Origin: Squalus acanthias
Taxonomy: Eukaryota
Reading direction: 5' to 3'
Assembly (NCBI GenBank): GCA_030390025.1
Contig: CM059431.1
Coordinates: 123,816,001-123,880,000 of the forward strand
Length of the DNA stretch: 64,000 nt
Positions 11,211-26,100 of this stretch are shown here, piece by piece. The position numbers and the translations under genes are program-made. The notes beneath the pieces are model-generated. The model saw only the letters and a program-made list of their open reading frames with translations. It ran no database searches and was not told where the DNA came from. Position 1 is the stretch's first letter. Every line of letters starts with the position of its first letter.

Positions 11211-11514
11211 GTGAGAAGTCGCACAACACCAGGTTATAGTCCAACAGCTTTATTTGAAATCACAAGCTTTTGGAGCGCTGCTCCTTCGTCAGGTGATGTG
11301 AAGAAATACATATGGGCACAGCATAAATAGTCGTCTGGCATTGTTCTCTGACTATTTATGCTGCGCCCATATGTATTTCTTCACTTCACCTGACGAAGGA
11401 GCAGCGCTCCGAAAGCTTGTGATTTCAAATAAAGCTGTTGGACTATAACCTGGTGTTGTGCGACTTCTCACTTTTGTCCACCCCAGTCCAACACCGGCAT
11501 CTCCGCATCATGTC
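11211..11514. mobile_element. Penelope-like element end with a 122-bp inverted repeat and hammerhead-like core
   Basis: Arms 11211-11332 and 11350-11471, TSD AATTATTCTT(G), and a CTGACGA...GAAA motif. Confidence 0.75.
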
Positions 11515-13393: not shown

Positions 13394-14933
13394 TTAGATG
13401 CGAGAGCAGTAATGGAGATAAAACTCATGTAGACTTGGTTTGAATGGTACGAAATGGAAAATCTTTATTGCATGATACTTAAAATTATGAAATACATGTC
13501 ATAAGCACAGATTAATGACAGTACAATCTTACAAACAGTTATATAGTCGATCTTAGGGAAACGAGGAACGAACGGCACAAAGTAAATAGGGGCACACATT
13601 ACAAATATCCTTAATCCTTAAACCCTCCCCTATCAATATCTATCCTAAACTAGCTTCGTAGGATCTCGAGACTCATGCTCACCACTCGTGATAACTCGGA
13701 GAAATTCCGAATAGCTGATCGGATGTTTTTCACCGCAGCACCCACGTGTCGGTCAGGAGATCTCCTGGTCCCACTTGTTTACTTGCTTCTGCTGCTCCGG
13801 CTAGTAGGCTGGACCGTCTGCTGTGATGAAGACCTGTGTTGGTTGGCTTAACAGGTACTCTTGGAGCACAGTTGTCAATATCATCGATACGATGTGTTTT
13901 CACGTTCCAATCTCCTTAGACACAGTCCCGTTATCGTCGATGCAATATGTTTTGTTAAAAGTTCAAAATAGAAATCTTCCTGGCGAGGAAAACTTGGCTG
14001 ATCGACCTACAGGCGCGGTCGGGATTTACTGACCGTGGCGATGGATATGGTCTTCCTCTCTTCTCCTCTCATCTCATCTCATCTCATCTCATCTCGGGCC
14101 TTTGGTTCCGCTGCCAGTTACCAACATAGGTCTTCGTTACGCGACACGAGGTAGATCCGAACGGATCAGAAAGTTCAACAGTCTTTTCAGAAGAGGCAAC
14201 GGGCAAGCAGAAGCCCAACTACGAGTACACAGGAGCAGCCACGAGGTTACGAATCGACCGGATAAAACACAGGAGCAAGCGAGCGAATGCAAGAGCAAGA
14301 GAGAGAATGGACGGTTTGGAGCCTGCAATTATAGTGCAAAAATCTTCCGTTTCCCGCCCAACTATAATGTCCATTCTTTTGTTTAGGGTTTGGCGCCCAA
14401 ATGTCTTGTATGGGTGATCTCCGTTCTTAATGAGTTTCGGGGCTACTCATAAATGTCTGAGTGCCTGTTAATATTTCTCCCATTGTTAAATCGGTCGGTG
14501 TTCTCCCTGGAGGGGTTTGGGGCTTCCAAGTGTCCTGTATAACTACCTGCTAACGGCTCTCTCATCGTAGAGTCGTTGGGATTTACATATTAATGTCTTT
14601 TGGATGGGCCCTTGATTACTCGGTACAATGGCTTTCCTTTGTACCTGGGAGACCGATTCCAGTATCTATGTTTATACTGCAAACCCATAATGTCTCGTGT
14701 ACCATCTTCACTGTGCTGAATCGTTATCGATCTTGCACAAATGTTTAATGGAACGCCATCTTGTCTGCCTGTTGAAAAGTCTAGAATGTTCTGTCACGAG
14801 GTGCGGCGGCCATTTTACAGGCTGCTTGTGTCCAATTTAAACCTGCCAGCATTCTGCTGAAATAAAAGCTGTTTGAACGAAACTTTGTGTTTTCTCCTCA
14901 TTAATCAAATCGCGATATATTGCGAATTCTACA
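13394..14933 (-). repeat. 3' LTR, 1540 bp
   Basis: Second copy of the repeat. On the element strand it is preceded by the purine tract AGGAGGG plus AC. Confidence 0.97.
13464..13469 (-). terminator. Candidate poly(A) signal AATAAA in the 3' LTR
   Basis: The only element-sense AATAAA I found in the LTR, about 70 nt from its end. Confidence 0.6.
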
Positions 14934-14935
14934 GT

Positions 14936-14942
14936 CCCTCCT
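14936..14942 (-). other. Short polypurine tract (AGGAGGG) followed by AC and the LTR-terminal TG
   Basis: Position immediately 5' of the 3' LTR, with a 2-nt spacer as in retroviral unprocessed ends. Confidence 0.7.
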
Positions 14943-15375
14943 GTTGATGCGAATAACTCCGCTTATCGTATCAAAAATCATAGTGGTGAGCAATATTATC
15001 TCGATTTCTCTCCGAATCCAGTAAATTAATCCCATAATTTTTAACTTAGCTAGGGTCTCTGTGTCGTCCTTATTTCCCAAGAAAATTACATTTTTTATCA
15101 CCGTAGGCATTATTTGCCCTTAAACTTACACCACTTGTTTTCCTTCCCGGCGTAACCAGGCCGATACCCCTCGTATCACCTGTATATTTGTCTTTTATTC
15201 AGGGAAAGGAAAAAACAAAACCCAAAAACCAAACAATCAACACCATCACCAAAATAATCAAACCTCAACTCTTAAAACATGTCGAGTTTCCAACGTATTT
15301 ACAATCTCTGAAAATCTTATATGAGTACAAACTTCCGCGGCGCACGCGGCGAGCGGGAGTGACGCCATTTTCCGA

Positions 15376-17727
15376 TTACACGGTGCTCTCATCGTGCACG
15401 CGCACGTAACGTTCTCGCCACTCTCCCGTGTTTTCATGCTTGGTGAGGCGCTTGTCTCTTTTACAATGTATGACCAATAGGTACACTACAATAAACACTT
15501 GACATGCGACTAAAATGTGGGAGGCTATTCTGATCCATGAAGGCACTTCAATATTAGTGAACAGATTCCACCACGGTGGAACTACTATGTCCAGAATGTC
15601 TGTTCCTATTTCGACAGTTTTCTGCTCTAATGTATAAAAATGTTTCTGTGATACCGCGACGGCTTTCAGAAGTTTGGTTAAATGTTCAGGGAGAGGGGGA
15701 ATGAGGTATCCAAAATGCGCGACAAATCGCTGCAAGTCGGTGAAATTCTCTTTTACTGTGAGATGAACAGTGGATGGTTCAGGGATTGGGATAATTCGCT
15801 GTTGTGCTACTTGAACTTCAGCCCTGGGTTTAAAACAGAAACTGCTGCCACTCACCGGACACCGGCTACGGTTTCCATGCTGGTAGTGTTGCGCTGCAGT
15901 GGTAACACAATATGTTCCACCCCCGATGTATGCTACCTGCGGAGGCACATGATCTTGTGCCATTGCCTCCATGGTGCAATTCATGGACTTGGCGCCAGCC
16001 GTTCTGAACCCGCACTGTGGTGTTAAAAAGGCATTCAAGTGCTGGGGGCACAGTATTATGTGCGCTCCCCTGCCACGACAACCAGAGAGATCTGTACCTG
16101 TCATCGTTTGCTCCCAGCGGATGACGTAAGGTGGAACTGCTGCATAGCGAATGTGGGCTCCCCCCTGAATGACACCAATGTTCTCTACCCGATACACCGG
16201 GGCGGGCTTTGCTGTGTCGCCCAAAACCGGCATGCGTAATACTATTCCCATAATAGTATGGTTTGAACGTCCGCAGTCCACGGGGACTGGGTATGCTTCT
16301 GAAGCTAGCCTGAGCTGGCACGGGCTTAATGCGTTCTGAAAAGGGTGGAGCGCCCGTAGGTGTTTGTTACTTATCCAGGACGGAACCAAACCTTGTTTTA
16401 AATCCTCCAAATTACTGCGGCCCTCGCCCAGTAACCACGCCCCGTAAAGCACGCACACCTCGTTCTGCGCAGCTTGATCGGATGCATTCCGATCTTCCCT
16501 GATCAGGGCATTTACCGTACGCGCATGTTTCTCCAGCTCTGCTATAATTTCCTTTAAATGGAGAGTCATGGCTTGGTCCTCGTGTAGACCTGACCCTACC
16601 ACTTTATTCTCATCTGTTAGAATGTCTTTTAACTGTGTTTTTAAACCATTAATCTGGGTCTGCAGCTCCACACTGTCTAGAGCGTTGACCACAGATGTCC
16701 CTGTGTTAAAAGCAGTGAACGCATCGTTCACCAAACCCCTTCTTTGCCTCCCTACTTGATCCAAAACTTCCTGCGGTGCGGTGTACAAACTTGTCTTATC
16801 AATTTCTGCAAAATCAAACTCGTAAAATTGTCTGAACATCTTGGTCAACAGGACCTGATACAACTGTTCCGTCTTTTTGGGGCACCACTCTGGTAACCGT
16901 ACCTCAGTGAGATTTAAAATCACCGAGGCCACCGCGTAATGTACCCCCTGAAAGAGTATCTGGTCTGTGGGGACCAGTACCAAACCATTCCCGGGTCCCT
17001 TACTAGTTTTAGGGCACCCTTCTTCCTCAGCTAGAACCACCGGAATCGTGGGCGGGGCTTTGCGTGGGCGCGTAATGAGTTCAGTGGCATTTACTGGGAT
17101 CGGGGAGAATGGGGCTCCGCACCCCCTGGTGCTCGCATCCCACCTCATCCCCTGTCCGTTATCCTGCCATTGATTAATAAAAAATATGGAGATGCCTTTG
17201 GGGCAAACGTACTTTGACCCCCACATACATACATAAATCCCCTCATCCGGTTCCCACCATTTGTCCCAACAGACTTTCACTTGTCCGTCTGTCCCCGTAA
17301 TTGTCCGATGGGTATTATTACCCAGTCGTTCCCACTCGACCGAAGAGTTTCTCATAGTTTTGCTCAGCTTTCGCAGCCACCACCATCGGCTCAATGGGAC
17401 CTTCCCACTACAAGTCAAACAAATCCGTTTGCCGACGGTGACGCTGATCCTGGGTGCGATGATCCTTACTTTGGGGCACAGTAAAGAAGTCTCTTGGTAG
17501 GCAAACCCCGATGTGCTGGAATACTCCGTTGAGTTCGTTCCCAGCCATCCTGGCCACCTTCCCTTGTGGAAATAGGTGCTGGTCCCCTCTGCCTTCCGTC
17601 TTCCGGTCCCATCCACCGCGATGGGGGCCGTGTCCCCGGAACATCCAAACACCACGACATCCTTGGTGCGGCCTCGATAGGCCAATCCACATCCGATTGC
17701 CACGAGCAATACTAGAATTCGTTCCAT
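15376..17727 (-). CDS. env: Envelope glycoprotein, about 783 aa (the ORF is open upstream to 17886)
   Basis: Signal-peptide-like MERILVLLVAIGCGLA, furin site RQRR (16738-16749), fusion-peptide-like GLVNDAFTAFNTG, heptad region, Cys-rich ectodomain, TM helix ILVACQVFIVVYLLVI and a short tail. The start codon is inferred. Confidence 0.9.
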   Translation of the reverse strand: MERILVLLVAIGCGLAYRGRTKDVVVFGCSGDTAPIAVDGTGRRKAEGTSTYFHKGRWPGWLGTNSTEYSSTSGFAYQETSLLCPKVRIIAPRISVTVGKRICLTCSGKVPLSRWWWLRKLSKTMRNSSVEWERLGNNTHRTITGTDGQVKVCWDKWWEPDEGIYVCMWGSKYVCPKGISIFFINQWQDNGQGMRWDASTRGCGAPFSPIPVNATELITRPRKAPPTIPVVLAEEEGCPKTSKGPGNGLVLVPTDQILFQGVHYAVASVILNLTEVRLPEWCPKKTEQLYQVLLTKMFRQFYEFDFAEIDKTSLYTAPQEVLDQVGRQRRGLVNDAFTAFNTGTSVVNALDSVELQTQINGLKTQLKDILTDENKVVGSGLHEDQAMTLHLKEIIAELEKHARTVNALIREDRNASDQAAQNEVCVLYGAWLLGEGRSNLEDLKQGLVPSWISNKHLRALHPFQNALSPCQLRLASEAYPVPVDCGRSNHTIMGIVLRMPVLGDTAKPAPVYRVENIGVIQGGAHIRYAAVPPYVIRWEQTMTGTDLSGCRGRGAHIILCPQHLNAFLTPQCGFRTAGAKSMNCTMEAMAQDHVPPQVAYIGGGTYCVTTAAQHYQHGNRSRCPVSGSSFCFKPRAEVQVAQQRIIPIPEPSTVHLTVKENFTDLQRFVAHFGYLIPPLPEHLTKLLKAVAVSQKHFYTLEQKTVEIGTDILDIVVPPWWNLFTNIEVPSWIRIASHILVACQVFIVVYLLVIHCKRDKRLTKHENTGEWRERYVRVHDESTV

Positions 17728-17740
17728 CCTTCCTTGGTTC

Positions 17741-17765
17741 CTGTGATCAGATAGAATGAGGTAGC
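17741..17765 (-). promoter_or_regulatory. Candidate env splice acceptor
   Basis: CTACCTCATTCTATCTGATCACAG|G, 13 nt upstream of the signal-peptide ATG. Confidence 0.55.
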
Positions 17766-18039
17766 CCGCCTCGCAAGAGTCTCTGGCTTTTGTGAAGGGT
17801 GAGCGGGTCCCCTGACCTCGCCTCACGTAAACTTCAACGTTTGCTGAATAAACTTCCTCTAAACCTAACCTTAAAACTCCCATCATTTATCGTTTTCTGT
17901 TAAAAACACTACAAACTTAGCCTTATTAAAATTACAACCTTAACCTTGAACTATAAACTTAAAACTTAACCTTGTTACTTATAAACTTAAAACTTAGAAC
18001 TATAACTTTACAGTGCCGCCCGTTCTCAGGGCGGCCCCT

Positions 18040-21000
18040 TTAAACTCTGAGAAGGCTGCTGCGAGCTCTTCCCGACGGTGGGAGGGCACTGACCCTTCCC
18101 TCTGATCTGCCGCAGCCTGTTGCTGCGCTGACCCTTCCCTCTGATCTGCCGCAGCCTGTTACTGCTGCGATGTGGCCGGTCTGTACCCGGGTTATCTTAA
18201 CCTGAAGTCTACGCCTTGGGGCAGTCTGGGGACATGACCACATCCTCCTGGGCTGGGGTTCTCTGCTTGACCTACGGGGAGTTGCTATGGGCGGGGGTTC
18301 CGTGACGGACGAACCGGGTTCCGAGACCTCCAACGGGATGACCTGGGGTTCCACCACAGTCGCTGGCTCCGCCTCCGCTGACTCCGCCTCCCTAACCTCG
18401 GGGCTGGCAGTTCGTGGCTCCGCCCTGCTCGGCCCAGCAAGCGGCCCTTCACTCGTGATCTCTGCCTCCCCTGAGGACTGGACGTTCAAAGCGGGCGGCC
18501 ACATCTCTGGGAGCCACATCGGTACTCTCTGTGCTCCTATAGCGGCTGGCCCTGCCTCCTCTAGCTCCTCCCTCCTGTCCTCGGGACCTGCAGCTTGTGT
18601 GTCCACCCTGTGTGGATCTCTACCTATAGGCCCCATTCCCTCCAGACCGTTCCTCAGGAACCACCCGTCATCATCACTATGCTCATCTGCACTATCCTCA
18701 TCTGACCAGGGTACCCTGGGTTCTTCCTCATCTAACCCCCAACTCCAGAAAAACGCTGCATGATCGTCCGGGATGTCCCTTCCCCTGATGCAAGCTGCTA
18801 TGCCTGCCTGTGTGCCTTGTGGTCCTACCTGGGGCTGTGCTTTCCCATTGGCGGGATTTACCCCTGTAGTTTTCCCCTGCGCACCCGGCTGGTACAGTTT
18901 GCATTGGTTTATGTGGAACCACTTAGTGCGCCGAGGTACTTTTACGGCGTAAACCATGGGACTCGCCTTGTCTACAATGTTGTAGGGTCCCATATACAGT
19001 GGTTCCAGACTCCCTACTCTGGCGTAGTTTCTGACCATGACCTGGTCTCCTACTTCCCACTCCCGCGTTTTGCGGGGTTCCAGCAACAAGCGATTGCCCT
19101 GATGCTGCCTTCCCATGTTCCCAGCCGCCTGCTCATAAACTTGCTTCAGGCGCTCCAAGAGAGTCTGGGCGAACTTGTCCCTGCTTATCTCTTGGAGCTG
19201 ACCCTCAGTGAGCACCGGGGCTAGCACATGGGTGGGGGTTCGCATGAGCCTCCCAGTCATTACCTCGTGCGGGGAGTACCCCGTACTTTTTGACTGACTG
19301 GCCCGGACCCCCATGAGGACTAAAGGCAGAACTTCCGCCCATTTTTGGGGCGAGTTCCTAGTCTCTTTCCTCAATTTCTCCTTCAGGGTCCGGTTCATAC
19401 GTTCAACAATCCCGGATGACTGGGGATTGTGTGCTACGTGCCACTTCCCTTCAATGCCCAAAAGCATGAGGGTGTTCTGCATCACCTGGCCGGTGAAATG
19501 ACTCCCTTGGTCTGACTCCACAAAACGGGGGAGTCCCCACCGCGAGAACACTTCCCGGACCAAGATTTTTGCTGTACCCAGTGCTGTAGCTGTTCGACAA
19601 GGGAAGGCTTCCACCCACTTGGAAAACACATCCACCAGGACGAGGCAGTACTTATAACCTCCCTGGGTGGTGGGCAGGGGTCCTATATAGTCGATCTGTA
19701 TCGACTGCCATGGTCCCTCTACCCTTCTTACGTGTCCCATGGGCACCTTCCTTTTCTGGGGGTCTGGGTTGTTTGCGGCGCACACAAGACAGTTTGCACA
19801 GAACTCGCGGACTTGTTCCCTGAGCCCTGGCCACCATCCCGCTTGCTCTACCCGTTGCCAGGTAACCTCGGGCCCGGGGTGCCCTGCCCCTGGTCCCTCG
19901 TGAGCCAACTGGAGGAATTCCCTCCTGTGCTGCTGCGGCACAACCCACTGCTCCTCGCGGAACAGCATGCCTTCCTTAACTGAGAGGGTTGCCGTACTGT
20001 ACGGACCTTCTACCTGCCTCCCCTCAGCAATCGTTTTTAGGACTGCTTTTAGGGCGGGATCCTGGGCTTGGACGGTCTTGAGGTCTAGGGGCAATGCTAC
20101 CCTGGTGTTCCCGGTATTCCCGTCCCCGCCTCGGACCGCTGCTATGGGTCCGGTCCTGTAGGGGTTCCAGAAAGTGCCGTCGCGGGCACCCTCCCTGGCT
20201 AGCGCATCCGCCTGCCGGTTGCCCTCCCCACGGGGCTCTGTGGAGGAGTGAGCTTTCACCTTATGGATGAAAATCTCTCCTTCCTCCCCTACTGCTGCTG
20301 CTAAGATCTTTTCCAGCAAGGGCTTCACCGTTAAAGGTCGCCCGTCCGCGGAGGTGTATCCGCGGCGGGACCAAATGGCCAGGTATTCCGTACACGAATT
20401 GCAGGTGAACATACTGTCCGAGCAAATCGTGTATGGGGTTGGGAAAATGTCTGGGTGGGTCACAACGTACACCACGGCAGACAGCTCAGCCTGCTGCGCG
20501 CTCATGGTGCTAGGGAGCTTGATCGCCAGGGCAAGGTCTGCCGCAGGGTCATAAACTCCACACCCTGTGAGTCGCTCGCCAGCAGACACTGTGCTAGACC
20601 CATCAACATAAATCTCGCGCCCAGTGGGATGTATCCCGGCCCGTAAACCTATGTTGACGTCCCACACCCCTTCCACCGAACACCGGTGGGCTGTACCGGG
20701 GTATACCAAATTGGCCGCAAGCCTGGGCTCGCAAAGACCCTTTACTCTAAGATCCAACTGGGAGAGAAGAAGGGTCCAACGCGCAATGCGTGCGCTGCTT
20801 ACGGTCCCGTCTTTAATCCTCCCATCCAGAAGCATCTTAGTTGGTGTGTGATGTGTGAGGAGAGTGATGGGAGAGAGCCCTGTGAAGATCGCTGATCTTT
20901 TCACAGCCCAATGCGTGGCTAAAAGGTGCCTTTCGCAATTGGAGAAACTTCTCTCCACATCCGTTAATACCCTGGATGAATAGACAACCGGCCTCAGCTT

Positions 21001-22563
21001 GCCGTGACGCTCTTGGAGCAGCACGGCGCTTAAGCTGTCTCCGCTGGCAGCTACCTCCAGGAAAAACTCCTTCCCCCCATCTATGGCCCCTAAGGCTGGC
21101 GCGGTCTGCAGATCCCTTTTTAACTTCTCGAAGGCTGCTTGGCAGCCCTCGTCCCAAAGCCACTCCACCCCCTTATGGAGGAGTCGGAGGAGCGGCGCCG
21201 CTGTGGCCGCATAATCTTCGATAAAATCCCTGCAGTAACCGGTCAGTCCCAAGAAGGACCTCACACCCCTTACGTTGTTGGGAATCGGTAATTCTTGCAC
21301 CGACTCCCTCCTTGCTTTGTCTATGGCTCTTTCCCCAGCGCGTATGGTCAGTCCCAGGAATTTTACTTCCCGCTGACCGATACGTGCTTTCTTAGGATTT
21401 ATTTTAAAACCCTTTCTCGCTAACAGTTCCAATAACTCGTCCAGTAGTGGTCCGTGCTCCTCCCTTGAGTCCGTAAATAGGAGCAAATCATCCACATACT
21501 GTACTATCTGATTGGGCTGACTAAACTCCCTTAAACTTCCTGCCATACACTGATGAAAAATACTGGGGCTATTGTGGAAACCCTGTGGCAGACAGTTCCA
21601 CGTGTACTGTTGCCCTTTGAAAGTAAAGGCAAACTTGTACTGGTCCTCTCGCCGCAGCGGGATGGACCAAAAACCGTTCGAGATATCCAGCACCGTGAAC
21701 GTGGTCGCGGACGCTGGGATGCTCCCTATTAGGTCAGCAACTGCTGCTACTGTGGGCGCGCAGGCGGGAATGTTACTGTTAAGGACTCTGTAGTCCACCG
21801 TGGCTCTCCACGAATTATCCGGCTTCCTAACCGGCCATAATGGGGAGTTCACGTGTGTGGCTATCGGCCTTAACACGCCCTGCTGCACCAAGGAAGACAT
21901 TGCTGTCTCCATATCGGGTTCTGCTTCTTTGGGGAAGTTATACTGCTTTTGGGGTCGGGTCATGGGGTCCCCATCTACGCTGACCTCAAACCCGACCACT
22001 CTCCCACAATCGTGCTTGTGGGTTGCAAACGCGTGCATATTATCTGACACGTACGTTTGCATGTCCGTTGGGACATCTGCGACCATAAGCCTGAGGTCGT
22101 AGCCTCCGGATGGCTGTACGGTACACAGGACCCCTGTTTCTTCCTCCCCCGGAATCACTATTACCTCGCCCTTTTCACCTTTAGCCCCCCAGAGACAGTG
22201 ATTTCTGAGGTCCACGAGGATCCCGTGTCCCGCTAGGAGATCGGACCCGAGAATACCTCTTCCACCCCCCTTTTGCCATGCCATCAGTATACACTTCCAC
22301 TTAAGGCGAAGTGTTCCTAAACGAATGGATAGCGGAAGGGAAAACGTGCCAGCCTGTTCTTTTCTTGTGAACCCTGCCAACGTGAATGGGACCTTGGTAG
22401 ATAGCGGCGAGTCAAAAGGGTTATCTGTATGGATTATGGTGCAAGAAGCTCCCGTGTCCAACAAATAACTGCCCTTCTGTTTCTCTACCTCCATCTCCAC
22501 CACAGGTCGCCTCCACGCATCATAGCTAAGCGGACACAGGTAGACGGGCTGTGCTGGTTCTAG
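18040..22563 (-). CDS. pol: Pol (protease, RT, inactive RNase H tether, RNase H, integrase, long C-terminal extension); in frame with gag after one TGA
   Basis: Protease LLDTGA and ILGSD. RT LPQGFHNSP and YVDD (21487-21498). RNase H YVDGSS/AELSA/SDS/GNRQAD. Integrase HHCC, IDYIGP, SDQGSHF, IVERMN and GPY. The frame is open from the gag stop to 18040. Confidence 0.95.
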   Translation of the reverse strand, partial: LEPAQPVYLCPLSYDAWRRPVVEMEVEKQKGSYLLDTGASCTIIHTDNPFDSPLSTKVPFTLAGFTRKEQAGTFSLPLSIRLGTLRLKWKCILMAWQKGGGRGILGSDLLAGHGILVDLRNHCLWGAKGEKGEVIVIPGEEETGVLCTVQPSGGYDLRLMVADVPTDMQTYVSDNMHAFATHKHDCGRVVGFEVSVDGDPMTRPQKQYNFPKEAEPDMETAMSSLVQQGVLRPIATHVNSPLWPVRKPDNSWRATVDYRVLNSNIPACAPTVAAVADLIGSIPASATTFTVLDISNGFWSIPLRREDQYKFAFTFKGQQYTWNCLPQGFHNSPSIFHQCMAGSLREFSQPNQIVQYVDDLLLFTDSREEHGPLLDELLELLARKGFKINPKKARIGQREVKFLGLTIRAGERAIDKARRESVQELPIPNNVRGVRSFLGLTGYCRDFIEDYAATAAPLLRLLHKGVEWLWDEGCQAAFEKLKRDLQTAPALGAIDGGKEFFLEVAASGDSLSAVLLQERHGKLRPVVYSSRVLTDVERSFSNCERHLLATHWAVKRSAIFTGLSPITLLTHHTPTKMLLDGRIKDGTVSSARIARWTLLLSQLDLRVKGLCEPRLAANLVYPGTAHRCSVEGVWDVNIGLRAGIHPTGREIYVDGSSTVSAGERLTGCGVYDPAADLALAIKLPSTMSAQQAELSAVVYVVTHPDIFPTPYTICSDSMFTCNSCTEYLAIWSRRGYTSADGRPLTVKPLLEKILAAAVGEEGEIFIHKVKAHSSTEPRGEGNRQADALAREGARDGTFWNPYRTGPIAAVRGGDGNTGNTRVALPLDLKTVQAQDPALKAVLKTIAEGRQVEGPYSTATLSVKEGMLFREEQWVVPQQHRREFLQLAHEGPGAGHPGPEVTWQRVEQAGWWPGLREQVREFCANCLVCAANNPDPQKRKVPMGHVRRVEGPWQSIQIDYIGPLPTTQGGYKYCLVLVDVFSKWVEAFPCRTATALGTAKILVREVFSRWGLPRFVESDQGSHFTGQVMQNTLMLLGIEGKWHVAHNPQSSGIVERMNRTLKEKLRKETRNSPQKWAEVLPLVLMGVRASQSKSTGYSPHEVMTGRLMRTPTHVLAPVLTEGQLQEISRDKFAQTLLERLKQVYEQAAGNMGRQHQGNRLLLEPRKTREWEVGDQVMVRNYARVGSLEPLYMGPYNIVDKASPMVYAVKVPRRTKWFHINQCKLYQPGAQGKTTGVNPANGKAQPQVGPQGTQAGIAACIRGRDIPDDHAAFFWSWGLDEEEPRVPWSDEDSADEHSDDDGWFLRNGLEGMGPIGRDPHRVDTQAAGPEDRREELEEAGPAAIGAQRVPMWLPEMWPPALNVQSSGEAEITSEGPLAGPSRAEPRTASPEVREAESAEAEPATVVEPQVIPLEVSEPGSSVTEPPPIATPRRSSREPQPRRMWSCPQTAPRRRLQVKITRVQTGHIAAVTGCGRSEGRVSAATGCGRSEGRVSALPPSGRARSSLLRV

Positions 22564-24375
22564 TCATGGGGCACTATTAGACGGTCCTGCGGCACCTACG
22601 GGGCCGGTTGCGACCGCCACCTGTCCACGCGCATTCAAAACCAGCTTGCGCATGGCTCCTAACACTGCTTCGAGGTCGTCGGGAGGGGTGGGTGCCTTGG
22701 CTTCCTTAGCCGGGACAGGCGCCTGGGCTCGGACCGCGGGATTTTTATCCTTGGAATCCTTCCAAGGGTTCCTGCAATGCTTGCGCCAGTGCCCTGTCTT
22801 CCCACACCCGTAACAAGCATTACTTGCCTGTGGGGCGCGATTACCCTCCTGATGCCACTCTCTTTGATACGGGGCTGCGGGTCGTACCTCATGTACTCTT
22901 CCCTTAAAGGGACGTGTCGTCATACCCCTTATATTACGATAACCTAACGTGAGTCGATTCAAGACCGACTCTTCCGTAAGGTTGAGGTCATTGGGATCAA
23001 ACCATGCTTTTGCCTGCTCTCTAACGGCTGGTAAACTGTTGGCTATTATGCACCTAAGCCAATGAGTTAAAGCGGCGCCTTCCACATCTTCGCGCTCGGG
23101 CGCACCTAGACAGCTGCGCTCATATACTGGCCACAGCCTGTCGGCAAAAACCTTCGGGGGTTCTCCCTCCATCTGCACTGTCTGTCCCACTCTAGCAAAC
23201 GGACCTCCGTCGTTCGCCCCCAACACTTCTAGGACCTCATTCTTTAATTCCTCATAACTCTTGTTTCCCCTCTTGCTCTCGCCTGAGAGACACTGAAGGA
23301 CCGAGCTGTCTAATGAGAACAGCAGCATTTTTGCTGTCTCCCCATCATCGCAGCCGTTAATGGCTGCGGCTTGCTCAACTTCTCTGAAATGTACGGAAGG
23401 GTCGTCTATCTCGGTCAGCTTCCGTACGTGATTTATCATAGCTCTCAGCTGATGTGAACTGTGAGGCAACACCAGCTGTCCGAGGAGATCCCCCGGTTCT
23501 TCCCCACCGTTTCTGCTTGGGCCCCTTTTAATACCCGTTACTGGATACAGCGATCCCTTTTCTACTTCCTTTTCAATGGGCTCTTTTGTTTCTTCCATTG
23601 CTTCCTCCCTAACCCAGGTTTCTGAATAGCTGGGTGGCGCGGAGGGCGCAGTGGCTACTACTTCTTCTGCTTTACTTGGTGGGGATTTTCTAAATCTCTC
23701 ATTTACTAGCGGCTGGTGCGCCGACGGATTGATAAGGCACACCATGCCGTTCGCATTGTTCACGGCCTTTTTGAGGTTCTCTATCTCCCTTTGGCAGGCG
23801 CTATGGTCGGCTCCCTGAAACTTATCCTCAAGGGCCAACTTATATGCCGACCTAACCCCCATTAAGCTCTCTTCTTGAGTTCTTATCTGGGCAGCTTGGC
23901 GGTTACATCTTTCCTTTAACCTGCTCTCATTCAATTTTGCCTCAGTGACCTGGCACTCGAGATAATCTATCCTTGTTTTAAGGTGACTGGAGACTTCCTG
24001 GCTTTCCTGGTGTAACTCATTTAAATTCTTAATGAGCACCTCCCCTCCAGAAACCTTCTCCTCCATTTCTCCCTCTAAATGACTGATTCGAGCTACTAGC
24101 GCTGTAATGGTCTGGTTTGAAATCTGAACCTGCCTTTTGTAGCACATAAGCCAGACTGCTTTCTCAAGTGTCTTTCTATGTTCTTTACTATCTGTCCACC
24201 TTTCAGCTGCCTCTAGTGGGCTCTTATCCGCTAACAATTCACTTATCCATTTCTTAGTTAGATTAACCTTTCCAAACACATAATCCGCTATCTTTTCCTG
24301 CATAACATTTCGTACAGTCATTCCAAAATCTAACACACTACCCTCTCGCTGCCAGTGTCCTGCCGCGGTCGCCAT
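22564..24375 (-). CDS. gag: Gag polyprotein, 603 aa from the first ATG
   Basis: ATG in good Kozak context (AAAATGG). N-terminal coiled-coil-like region, PSAPPSY late motif (23626-23646), and one CCHC knuckle CYGCGKTGHWRKHC (22774-22815). Confidence 0.93.
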   Translation of the reverse strand: MATAAGHWQREGSVLDFGMTVRNVMQEKIADYVFGKVNLTKKWISELLADKSPLEAAERWTDSKEHRKTLEKAVWLMCYKRQVQISNQTITALVARISHLEGEMEEKVSGGEVLIKNLNELHQESQEVSSHLKTRIDYLECQVTEAKLNESRLKERCNRQAAQIRTQEESLMGVRSAYKLALEDKFQGADHSACQREIENLKKAVNNANGMVCLINPSAHQPLVNERFRKSPPSKAEEVVATAPSAPPSYSETWVREEAMEETKEPIEKEVEKGSLYPVTGIKRGPSRNGGEEPGDLLGQLVLPHSSHQLRAMINHVRKLTEIDDPSVHFREVEQAAAINGCDDGETAKMLLFSLDSSVLQCLSGESKRGNKSYEELKNEVLEVLGANDGGPFARVGQTVQMEGEPPKVFADRLWPVYERSCLGAPEREDVEGAALTHWLRCIIANSLPAVREQAKAWFDPNDLNLTEESVLNRLTLGYRNIRGMTTRPFKGRVHEVRPAAPYQREWHQEGNRAPQASNACYGCGKTGHWRKHCRNPWKDSKDKNPAVRAQAPVPAKEAKAPTPPDDLEAVLGAMRKLVLNARGQVAVATGPVGAAGPSNSAP

Positions 24376-24560
24376 TTTCTGTAAGGGATTCCTGACCCTG
24401 CGTGTCTCGCAGCCTGTGAGATTCACGCGGCTCTGTGCAGCCTGTATGTCAGTGCGGGTCTAGGCCTGGTTGCCTGTTCTGGTCTCCAGCCAGTCTGGGA
24501 ACACTAGACACACCTGTGAGTGGTTCGAATCACTCTCCCTTACGGTTCTAGACACTGGAC

Positions 24561-26100
24561 TTAGATGCGAGAGCAGTAATGGAGATAAAACTCATGTAGA
24601 CTTGGTTTGAATGGTACGAAATGGAAAATCTTTATTGCATGATACTTAAAATTATGAAATACATGTCATAAGCACAGATTAATGACAGTACAATCTTACA
24701 AACAGTTATATAGTCGATCTTAGGGAAACGAGGAACGAACGGCACAAAGTAAATAGGGGCACACATTACAAATATCCTTAATCCTTAAACCCTCCCCTAT
24801 CAATATCTATCCTAAACTAGCTTCGTAGGATCTCGAGACTCATGCTCACCACTCGTGATAACTCGGAGAAATTCCGAATAGCTGATCGGATGTTTTTCAC
24901 CGCAGCACCCACGTGTCGGTCAGGAGATCTCCTGGTCCCACTTGTTTACTTGCTTCTGCTGCTCCGGCTAGTAGGCTGGACCGTCTGCTGTGATGAAGAC
25001 CTGTGTTGGTTGGCTTAACAGGTACTCTTGGAGCACAGTTGTCAATATCATCGATACGATGTGTTTTCACGTTCCAATCTCCTTAGACACAGTCCCGTTA
25101 TCGTCGATGCAATATGTTTTGTTAAAAGTTCAAAATAGAAATCTTCCTGGCGAGGAAAACTTGGCTGATCGACCTACAGGCGCGGTCGGGATTTACTGAC
25201 CGTGGCGATGGATATGGTCTTCCTCTCTTCTCCTCTCATCTCATCTCATCTCATCTCATCTCGGGCCTTTGGTTCCGCTGCCAGTTACCAACATAGGTCT
25301 TCGTTACGCGACACGAGGTAGATCCGAACGGATCAGAAAGTTCAACAGTCTTTTCAGAAGAGGCAACGGGCAAGCAGAAGCCCAACTACGAGTACACAGG
25401 AGCAGCCACGAGGTTACGAATCGACCGGATAAAACACAGGAGCAAGCGAGCGAATGCAAGAGCAAGAGAGAGAATGGACGGTTTGGAGCCTGCAATTATA
25501 GTGCAAAAATCTTCCGTTTCCCGCCCAACTATAATGTCCATTCTTTTGTTTAGGGTTTGGCGCCCAAATGTCTTGTATGGGTGATCTCCGTTCTTAATGG
25601 GTTTCGGGGCTACTCATAAATGTCTGAGTGCCTGTTAATATTTCTCCCATTGTTAAATCGGTCGGTGTTCTCCCTGGAGGGGTTTGGGGCTTCCAAGTGT
25701 CCTGTATAACTACCTGCTAACGGCTCTCTCATCGTAGAGTCGTTGGGATTTACATATTAATGTCTTTTGGATGGGCCCTTGATTACTCGGTACAATGGCT
25801 TTCCTTTGTACCTGGGAGACCGATTCCAGTATCTATGTTTATACTGCAAACCCATAATGTCTCGTGTACCATCTTCACTGTGCTGAATCGTTATCGATCT
25901 TGCACAAATGTTTAATGGAACGCCATCTTGTCTGCCTGTTGAAAAGTCTAGAATGTTCTGTCACGAGGTGCGGCGGCCATTTTACAGGCTGCTTGTGTCC
26001 AATTTAAACCTGCCAGCATTCTGCTGAAATAAAAGCTGTTTGAACGAAACTTTGTGTTTTCTCCTCATTAATCAAATCGCGATATATTGTGAATTCTACA
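24561..26100 (-). repeat. 5' LTR, 1540 bp, element-sense TGTAGA...TCTAA
   Basis: Matches 13394-14933. By-eye comparison found two substitutions (14433/25600 and 14923/26090) and no indels. Confidence 0.97.
25475..25563 (-). promoter_or_regulatory. Candidate LTR core promoter
   Basis: TTTGGCGC and TTTCCCGC (E2F consensus), a GC box, CGGAAG, TATAAT at 25500-25495, and an Inr-like CCATTCTCTC about 25 nt downstream. Confidence 0.5.

Follow-up and report, generated by a model that had tools for sequence, protein, structure and literature searches.

Candidate readthrough of a UGA-CUAG stop where gag meets pol in a basal retrovirus of Squalus acanthias

How is Pol produced by a provirus in which gag and pol share one reading frame and are separated by a single stop codon? 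The control of the Gag to Pol ratio is textbook knowledge for the mammalian retroviral genera. The question is raised here by a young provirus on the minus strand (26100-13394) of a 64,000-nucleotide stretch of the Squalus acanthias genome (assembly GCA_030390025.1, contig CM059431.1, positions 123,816,001 to 123,880,000), referred to below as the window and numbered from its first letter. The junction, judged from its sequence, is best understood as an in-frame UGA that is read through in a type II context. At a probability of roughly 0.78, a minority of the ribosomes would read through UGA-CUAG and yield a predicted Gag-Pol of 2,111 residues, and most would release a Gag of 603 residues.

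Read 5' to 3' on the minus strand, the codons from 22575 to 22549 are AGT GCC CCA TGA CTA GAA CCA GCA CAG. The candidate readthrough codon is the in-frame UGA at 22564..22566, and it is followed by CUAG (22560..22563), which corresponds to the type II UGA-CUA with an additional G. Upstream lies gag (22564..24375, minus), which encodes 603 amino acids plus the TGA, contains a CX2CX4HX4C zinc knuckle and is part of an open frame from 24459 to 22564. The start at ATG 24375 is supported because the Gag of a skate (Rhinoraja) begins at the same Met. Downstream lies the pro-pol frame of 1507 amino acids (18040..22563, minus). The two genes form one frame with the TGA at 22566-22564 as the sole separator, after which 1,507 codons are open; between 21800 and 23200 this frame contains one stop, compared to 27 and 25 in the other two frames. 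Counted from the first ATG, the fused product amounts to 603+1+1507 = 2111 residues. An earlier sequence-only reading had described a gag ending in CCA TGA CTA GAA, a frame open into the protease and a 2111-residue Gag-Pol, all of which was borne out on the minus strand. It had also distrusted the open-reading-frame start at 22503; this position is a GTG, and the start is therefore an artefact of a bacterial start-codon track.

The context of this stop is rare by chance. Within the internal region (14934-24560), the sense strand has 115 TGA trimers, and TGACTA and TGACTAG each occur once among them, namely at the gag stop. Over the whole window and both strands, TGACTA makes up 20 and TGACTAG 3 of the 2475 TGA trimers. 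The sequence-only reading regarded UGA-CUA(G) as the leaky context of alphaviruses and of vertebrate genes, among them MDH1 as well as AQP4 and LDHB, the latter two being presumed cases here. For the alphaviruses and MDH1 this agrees with a 2026 review (PMC13517186). There, type II readthrough in the sense of Beier and Grimm is defined by UGACGG or UGACUA; UGACUA is listed for Sindbis virus (SINV), chikungunya virus (CHIKV) as well as Plautia stali intestine virus (PSIV), MDH1 and OPRL1 are given as cellular genes with the leaky UGA-CUA context, and readthrough at UGACUAG in human genes is put at no less than about 1.3% (PMC13517186). The junction carries the type II hexanucleotide at the stop (UGA CUA G) together with a long, conserved in-frame coding extension (1507 codons with protease, reverse transcriptase (RT), RNase H and integrase). 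The gammaretroviral type III arrangement, with UAG-G and an H-type pseudoknot from +12, is absent, as the stop is UGA-C. Moloney murine leukaemia virus (MoMLV) resembles the window in having gag and pro-pol in one frame and in making Pol by suppression; it differs in using UAG-G and an H-type pseudoknot instead of UGA-CUAG and a predicted rod.

In the proposed mechanism, a near-cognate tRNA would compete with eRF1 at the UGA owing to the C at +4 and the CUAG context, as in alphaviruses and in MDH1 and OPRL1. The near-cognate tRNAs at UGA are those for Arg, Trp or Cys. Readthrough may be enhanced by a predicted stem-loop from +6 to +226, in the manner of the SINV element, and the protease would then free itself by a cut about 11 codons beyond the stop. 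By analogy only, a readthrough between a few per cent and some 10% would be expected. The closest parallel in form is the alphaviral nsP3/nsP4 junction (SINV UGA CUA ACC; o'nyong-nyong virus, ONNV, UGA CUA GAC; PMC13517186). It shares with the window the UGA-CUA, a polymerase in frame behind it, a protease site (putative in the window) a few codons beyond the stop and an extended 3' stem-loop, of 126-177 nt in alphaviruses versus about 220 nt predicted here. It differs in that the window holds a retroviral gag/pro-pol junction with a predicted structure, known from its sequence alone.

Could the TGA be a nonsense mutation in a frame that was once continuous? Continuous gag-pol genes do exist in lokiretroviruses (10 of the 24 consensus sequences are annotated so, PMC7947760), and the present copy is damaged, since its 3' long terminal repeat (LTR) is truncated. 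Against this, the three frames are otherwise open and the two LTR copies are 99.87% identical, with 2 differences in 1540 nt (24561-26100 versus the 3' copy). UGA-CUAG furthermore belongs to the leakiest known class of contexts (PMC13517186). The Gag homologs point in the same direction. The only one found was a skate (Rhinoraja) protein, in a cluster of four. One member (P0269) is truncated by a frameshift and was left out of the comparison of gag ends; the three full-length proteins (P0268, P0270 and P0271, about 50% identity) stop at the same aligned position as the window Gag, these three and the window Gag ending six residues past the same aligned Gly. P0268 is 50% identical to the window Gag over 600 aligned positions, with the same start and end.

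The stop is also retained in other copies, as far as these were sampled. Contigs from 4 of the 24 listed sequencing runs (four studies; coded organisms A, B, C and E) were aligned to 22200-22900, and 40 of the 113 rows of variants were listed. Among these, changes near the junction fall at 22552, 22555 and 22558 (all synonymous) and at 22568 and 22572, and none falls at 22560-22566. The conservation of TGACTAG in other copies, which had been proposed as a check, thus came out in its favour among the rows listed, weak as this test is. One contig from coded organism C (X9 record 28) spans the junction with the same motif, its two differences lying elsewhere (22471 and 22528). The matches of diverged contigs end at 22532-22534 (X8, X9 and X19) and at 22567-22568 (X3, X8 and X19), on either side of the junction, which frames it as a putative conserved island between these ends. 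Taken together, the near-identical LTRs, the skate Gags that end alike and the sister copies with no change listed at the stop indicate that the TGA at the gag end is not decay, and a nonsense mutation is highly improbable.

If the UGA were a true stop, Pol could be made separately, either through translation of a spliced mRNA or with initiation at its first Met. This is the strategy of the foamy viruses, in which pol has a spliced mRNA with its own AUG and Gag lacks a zinc knuckle. The first Met past the stop is residue 24 of the pol frame, at an AUG that follows at +73, and the catalytic Asp is residue 36. Met24 stands in a strong Kozak context and is common to the protein P0001 and, as judged by eye, to an elephant-shark element (CmiERV); its position is occupied by Val in the coelacanth protein P0005 and in P0274. 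Possible acceptor sites are an AG at 22526, with a pyrimidine tract of 75%, and the CTAG of the junction itself, which contains a YAG (55% pyrimidine). The anatomy of the protease speaks for another route. The proteases of human and simian immunodeficiency viruses (HIV and SIV) align from pol residues 14-16, with WRRP opposite WKRP of HIV; residues 5-12 of the HIV protease are matched by residues 16-23 here, which lie upstream of Met24, and HIV Asp25 by Asp36. Initiation at Met24 would drop this W-x-R-P strand. The stretch from the stop to the first AUG thus already codes for the first strand of the protease, and this favours translation that runs on through the UGA. The window Gag moreover has its CCHC knuckle, unlike that of foamy viruses. 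Among the rows listed, no splice-type joint or loose end was seen at the junction AGs, and the one joint found, in X3, is not of the GT-AG type; as these are contigs, the test is weak. A separately made Pol is accordingly quite improbable. A sense codon in sister copies and a spliced pol mRNA had been named by the sequence-only reading as observations that would overturn it; neither appeared, both tests being weak.

Frameshifting or termination-reinitiation has general precedent as a source of Pol. Here, frameshifting is excluded because gag and pol share their frame and the sole slippery heptamer between 22300 and 22900 is the one at 22420, within pol; the other two frames are filled with stops and the next AUG follows only at +73. 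This route to Pol is hardly credible at the junction.

Readthrough might in contrast be driven by the RNA structure downstream of the stop, with CUAG being incidental, as with the MoMLV pseudoknot and with PSIV as the reverse case. Folding of the downstream RNA, the check that had been suggested, predicts one extended stem-loop from +6 to +226 counted from the U of UGA (22341..22561, minus) when 225-400 nt of context are given. This rod has a predicted energy of -87.4 kcal/mol and a z of -4.57, and none of 200 shuffled sequences was as stable. In type II readthrough, an extended stem-loop downstream is a conditional feature of UGACUA sites. The core of the rod (+88..+154) was stable throughout, +89..+153 having a probability of 1.0 in all 12 contexts computed. 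Among the variants listed in the rod region (n=25), 10 are unpaired, 12 keep their pair by a one-sided change and 3 break it. Pairs are thus broken by 3 of the 15 paired variants compared to 6.8-7.2 expected (P 0.007-0.014); as the variants are linked and the fold was derived from the window sequence, this deficit is modest support. The stability of the rod, the deficit of broken pairs and the elephant-shark relative, which retains only UGA-C (PMC4422223), are consistent with a structural drive. The rarity of CUAG, the recurrence of UGA-CUA at lokiretroviral junctions (PMC7947760) and the dependence of the basal stem on context argue against it, and such a drive without a role for CUAG seems unlikely.

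Other predictions around the stop were less informative. In an 80-nt folding scan, the window starting at +4 reached a z of only -2.08, and no Rfam match was found at 22200-22800. A hairpin at +10..+70 was discarded: it vanishes when at least 200 nt of context are included, and 4 of its 5 paired variants break it. A first estimate for the rod (z -7.2, rank 1/28) was obtained with 30 shuffles and with register and length chosen post hoc, and has been superseded by the values reported here. Equally strong folds, with z values of about -4 to -4.9, are predicted for further 225-nt windows in pol (21919-22203, 19099-19443 and 20149-20463, minus).

To place the element, a tree of the RT and tether of 35 selected rows was built with IQ-TREE, and a FastTree analysis of 66 rows agrees with it. 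Among the 35 rows, no foamy or ERV-L reference was identified. P0143, the Pol of snakehead retrovirus (SnRV), and P0010, a Loki-Aro-like sequence, were matched to rows of the alignment in the lokiretrovirus supplement (P0010 by eye), and the Loki clade comprises six Loki-like rows, that is P0010 and the rows clustering with it. The window RT falls on the Retroviridae side (100/99), in a basal polytomy, and outside the Loki clade (100/100), by which the identity as a lokiretrovirus is ruled out. SnRV, whose branch is long, groups with other rows (98/96) and is not a supported sister of the window; its RT-tether is 37% identical. A dual RNase H is present (PF17919/PF17917, then PF00075), the combination of tether and RNase H being common to all retroviruses. 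Pol is closest to one protein at 84% and, at 44-46%, to 'NYNRIN-like' proteins of frog and coelacanth. From these sequence comparisons we call the element a basal, loosely SnRV-like retrovirus under no named genus; background on the SnRV-like clade can be found in PMC4977317. Scans for related loci returned no relatives in viral or metagenome contigs, and the six metagenome loci (L001-L006) from a scan for the junction motif were dropped, as they had no tblastn match to Gag or Pol. When residues 400-760, with X in place of the stop, were used to look for fused Gag-Pol proteins spanning the junction, none turned up among 3594 candidates, which is not evidence of absence.

The junctions of deep-branching relatives were read by eye and not computed. 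Lineage I of the elephant-shark CmiERV, on scaffold 2, clusters with SnRV (PMC4422223). In the supplement of this paper, its zinc knuckle is followed by TGA CAT G and then by the protease in frame. SnRV and CmiERV-I thus resemble the window in having an in-frame stop past the zinc knuckle (PMC4422223), and CmiERV-I also in its TGA-C, an HKHDCG motif in Pol and an L-C-x-P...R-P lead-in to the protease. They differ in the context, which is UAG GGC in SnRV and contains CAU instead of CUA in CmiERV-I. A stop codon or readthrough is not mentioned in the part of the PMC4422223 text that was available.

In lokiretroviruses, the context of the window recurs. Among the 24 consensus sequences in the supplement of PMC7947760, gag ends in TGA-CTA-G in four (Ofa, Pyo, Sau and Cne), in TGA-CTA-A in three (Bsp, Dcl and Lro) and in TGN-CTA-A in one (Tfu). 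These ends are in frame with the annotated pol, except in Bsp, where the frame breaks further down, and in Tfu, where the annotated frame continues to a TAA. Of the seven separately annotated gag genes, six have TGA-CTA and one (Tfu) has TGN-CTA at the homologous point; Cne also has TGA-CTA. The readings cover 8 of the 24 sequences, the others being 10 that are fused and 6 more. Of the 17 TGACTAG matches in the supplement, 13 were set aside, since they do not form in-frame gag ends (the one in Lch, for example, is out of frame with pol). The available main text of PMC7947760 mentions neither readthrough (in either spelling) nor frameshift nor stop codon. Besides these gag ends (7 of 24, plus one TGN-CTA), lokiretroviruses share with the window the dual RNase H and an RxxR-type Env site, and they differ in the position of their RT.

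Several points weigh against readthrough at a CUAG signal. The frame, the context, the position of the stop and the protease anatomy are observed at the level of sequence; readthrough itself is inferred, as are its rate, the residue put in at the UGA and any contribution of the structure. CUAG is not lineage-wide, given the CAU of CmiERV-I and the UAG GGC of SnRV, and 10 of the lokiretroviral consensus sequences are annotated as continuous gag-pol. The basal pairing of the rod shifts with the context, the rod has equals elsewhere (it ranks 6 among 203 windows along gag-pol), and among the variants listed there are no two-sided compensatory changes in it. Protein constraint alone could account for the island at the junction. 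At the density of the listed variants, seven blank positions are expected by chance in about 66% of cases (a hand calculation); the blank run at 22560-22566 in the sister copies therefore shows a shared stop and not selection on CUAG.

How new is such a junction among retroviruses? Stop suppression for Pol is textbook knowledge, and UAG contexts are on record for MoMLV, walleye dermal sarcoma virus (WDSV) and SnRV (UAGGGC, PMC13517186). The same review gives UGA at the gag-pro junctions of three fish and amphibian retroviruses: SSSV (salmon swim bladder sarcoma virus, UGAAGA), ZFERV (zebrafish endogenous retrovirus, UGACGA) and the cane-toad endogenous retrovirus RMEV (UGAAGU). UGA junctions were hence already known in aquatic retroviruses, so that the 'different recoding strategy for Pol' of the sequence-only reading holds with respect to the gammaretroviruses and not as a departure from all precedent. 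These three resemble the window in the in-frame UGA between gag and pro, in that their readthrough was deduced from sequence, and in their aquatic hosts; none of them has UGA-CUA, they are distantly epsilon-related according to the review, and the class I-like rows do not include the window RT. Readthrough in epsilonretroviruses is described there as unverified (PMC13517186). UGA-CUA is not among the retroviral junctions given in the available part of this review, and no description of UGA-CUA(G) readthrough between gag and pol was found in a search that extended neither to subscription papers nor to Repbase notes nor to the original SnRV, SSSV and ZFERV papers. The single 'read-through' in PMC12440569 refers to transcripts, a term search of PMC9447858 had no match, and PMC9040795 does not mention readthrough, frameshift or stop codon. 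The new elements here are a CUA(G) context, combined with an extended stem-loop as predicted, at a retroviral gag-pol junction, and the recurrence of this context in other deep fish lineages.

The remainder of the provirus is of retroviral make. The 5' LTR (24380..26100, minus) measures about 1.72 kb; its inner end is placed at an ...ACA terminus, 5 nt before a sequence resembling a primer-binding site (PBS). In the 3' copy (13394..14933, minus), the final 181 nt or so of the 5' LTR so delimited are missing. No target-site duplication is visible at the provirus, despite the near-identical LTRs and the shortened 3' LTR. The PBS-like 18-mer (24357..24374, minus) begins with TGG and overlaps the gag ATG. 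This ATG thus lies within the PBS-like site (24357-24377, minus), and the skate Gag has the same start Met and other PBS-encoded residues. For SnRV, the primer is presumably tRNA-Arg; no tRNA genes were found in the 64-kb window.

The gag product has no Pfam match. The pro-pol frame encodes a protease (Asp36), RT, tether, RNase H, integrase and a long C-terminal tail, and matches RVT_1, RT_RNaseH, RT_RNaseH_2, RNase_H, Integrase_H2C2 and rve; the RVP match of the protease is weak (E 0.0027, under the cut-off) and starts at residue 17. The tail past the integrase (about 18040-18900, minus) comprises some 280 residues and is acidic and proline-rich; a short tandem repeat lies close to its end. 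The env frame (15376..17886, minus) measures 836 amino acids from stop to stop and contains an RQRR site; after this site come a hydrophobic peptide and long helices, and Env has an F-type look. A paramyxovirus-F-like Env is a trait of lokiretroviruses. The window Env has no Pfam match, an uninformative single-sequence model (pLDDT 33) and an Atlas score of 0.84 in a chordate cluster. Elsewhere in the window, at 11211-11471, lies an inverted repeat of 122 nt with 98% complementarity and a 17-nt spacer.

For the annotation of such elements, an in-frame TGA-CTA at the end of gag should be taken neither as an inactivating stop nor as a reason to split the locus into separate gag and pol genes. 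The junction offers a clean, testable signal of the alphavirus type in a retrovirus. The comparison suggests that deep-branching vertebrate retroviruses and lokiretroviruses may share the leaky context of cellular readthrough genes, by convergence or by ancestry. More tentatively, and with considerable doubt, opal UGA-CU(A) readthrough may be an old strategy for Pol, common to the basal retroviruses of cartilaginous fish and to the lokiretroviruses, the sister group of the Retroviridae. If this were true, opal readthrough would predate the UAG-pseudoknot and frameshift solutions of the mammalian retroviruses, and the continuous gag-pol forms would have arisen by switches from opal to sense codons, as in the alphaviruses.

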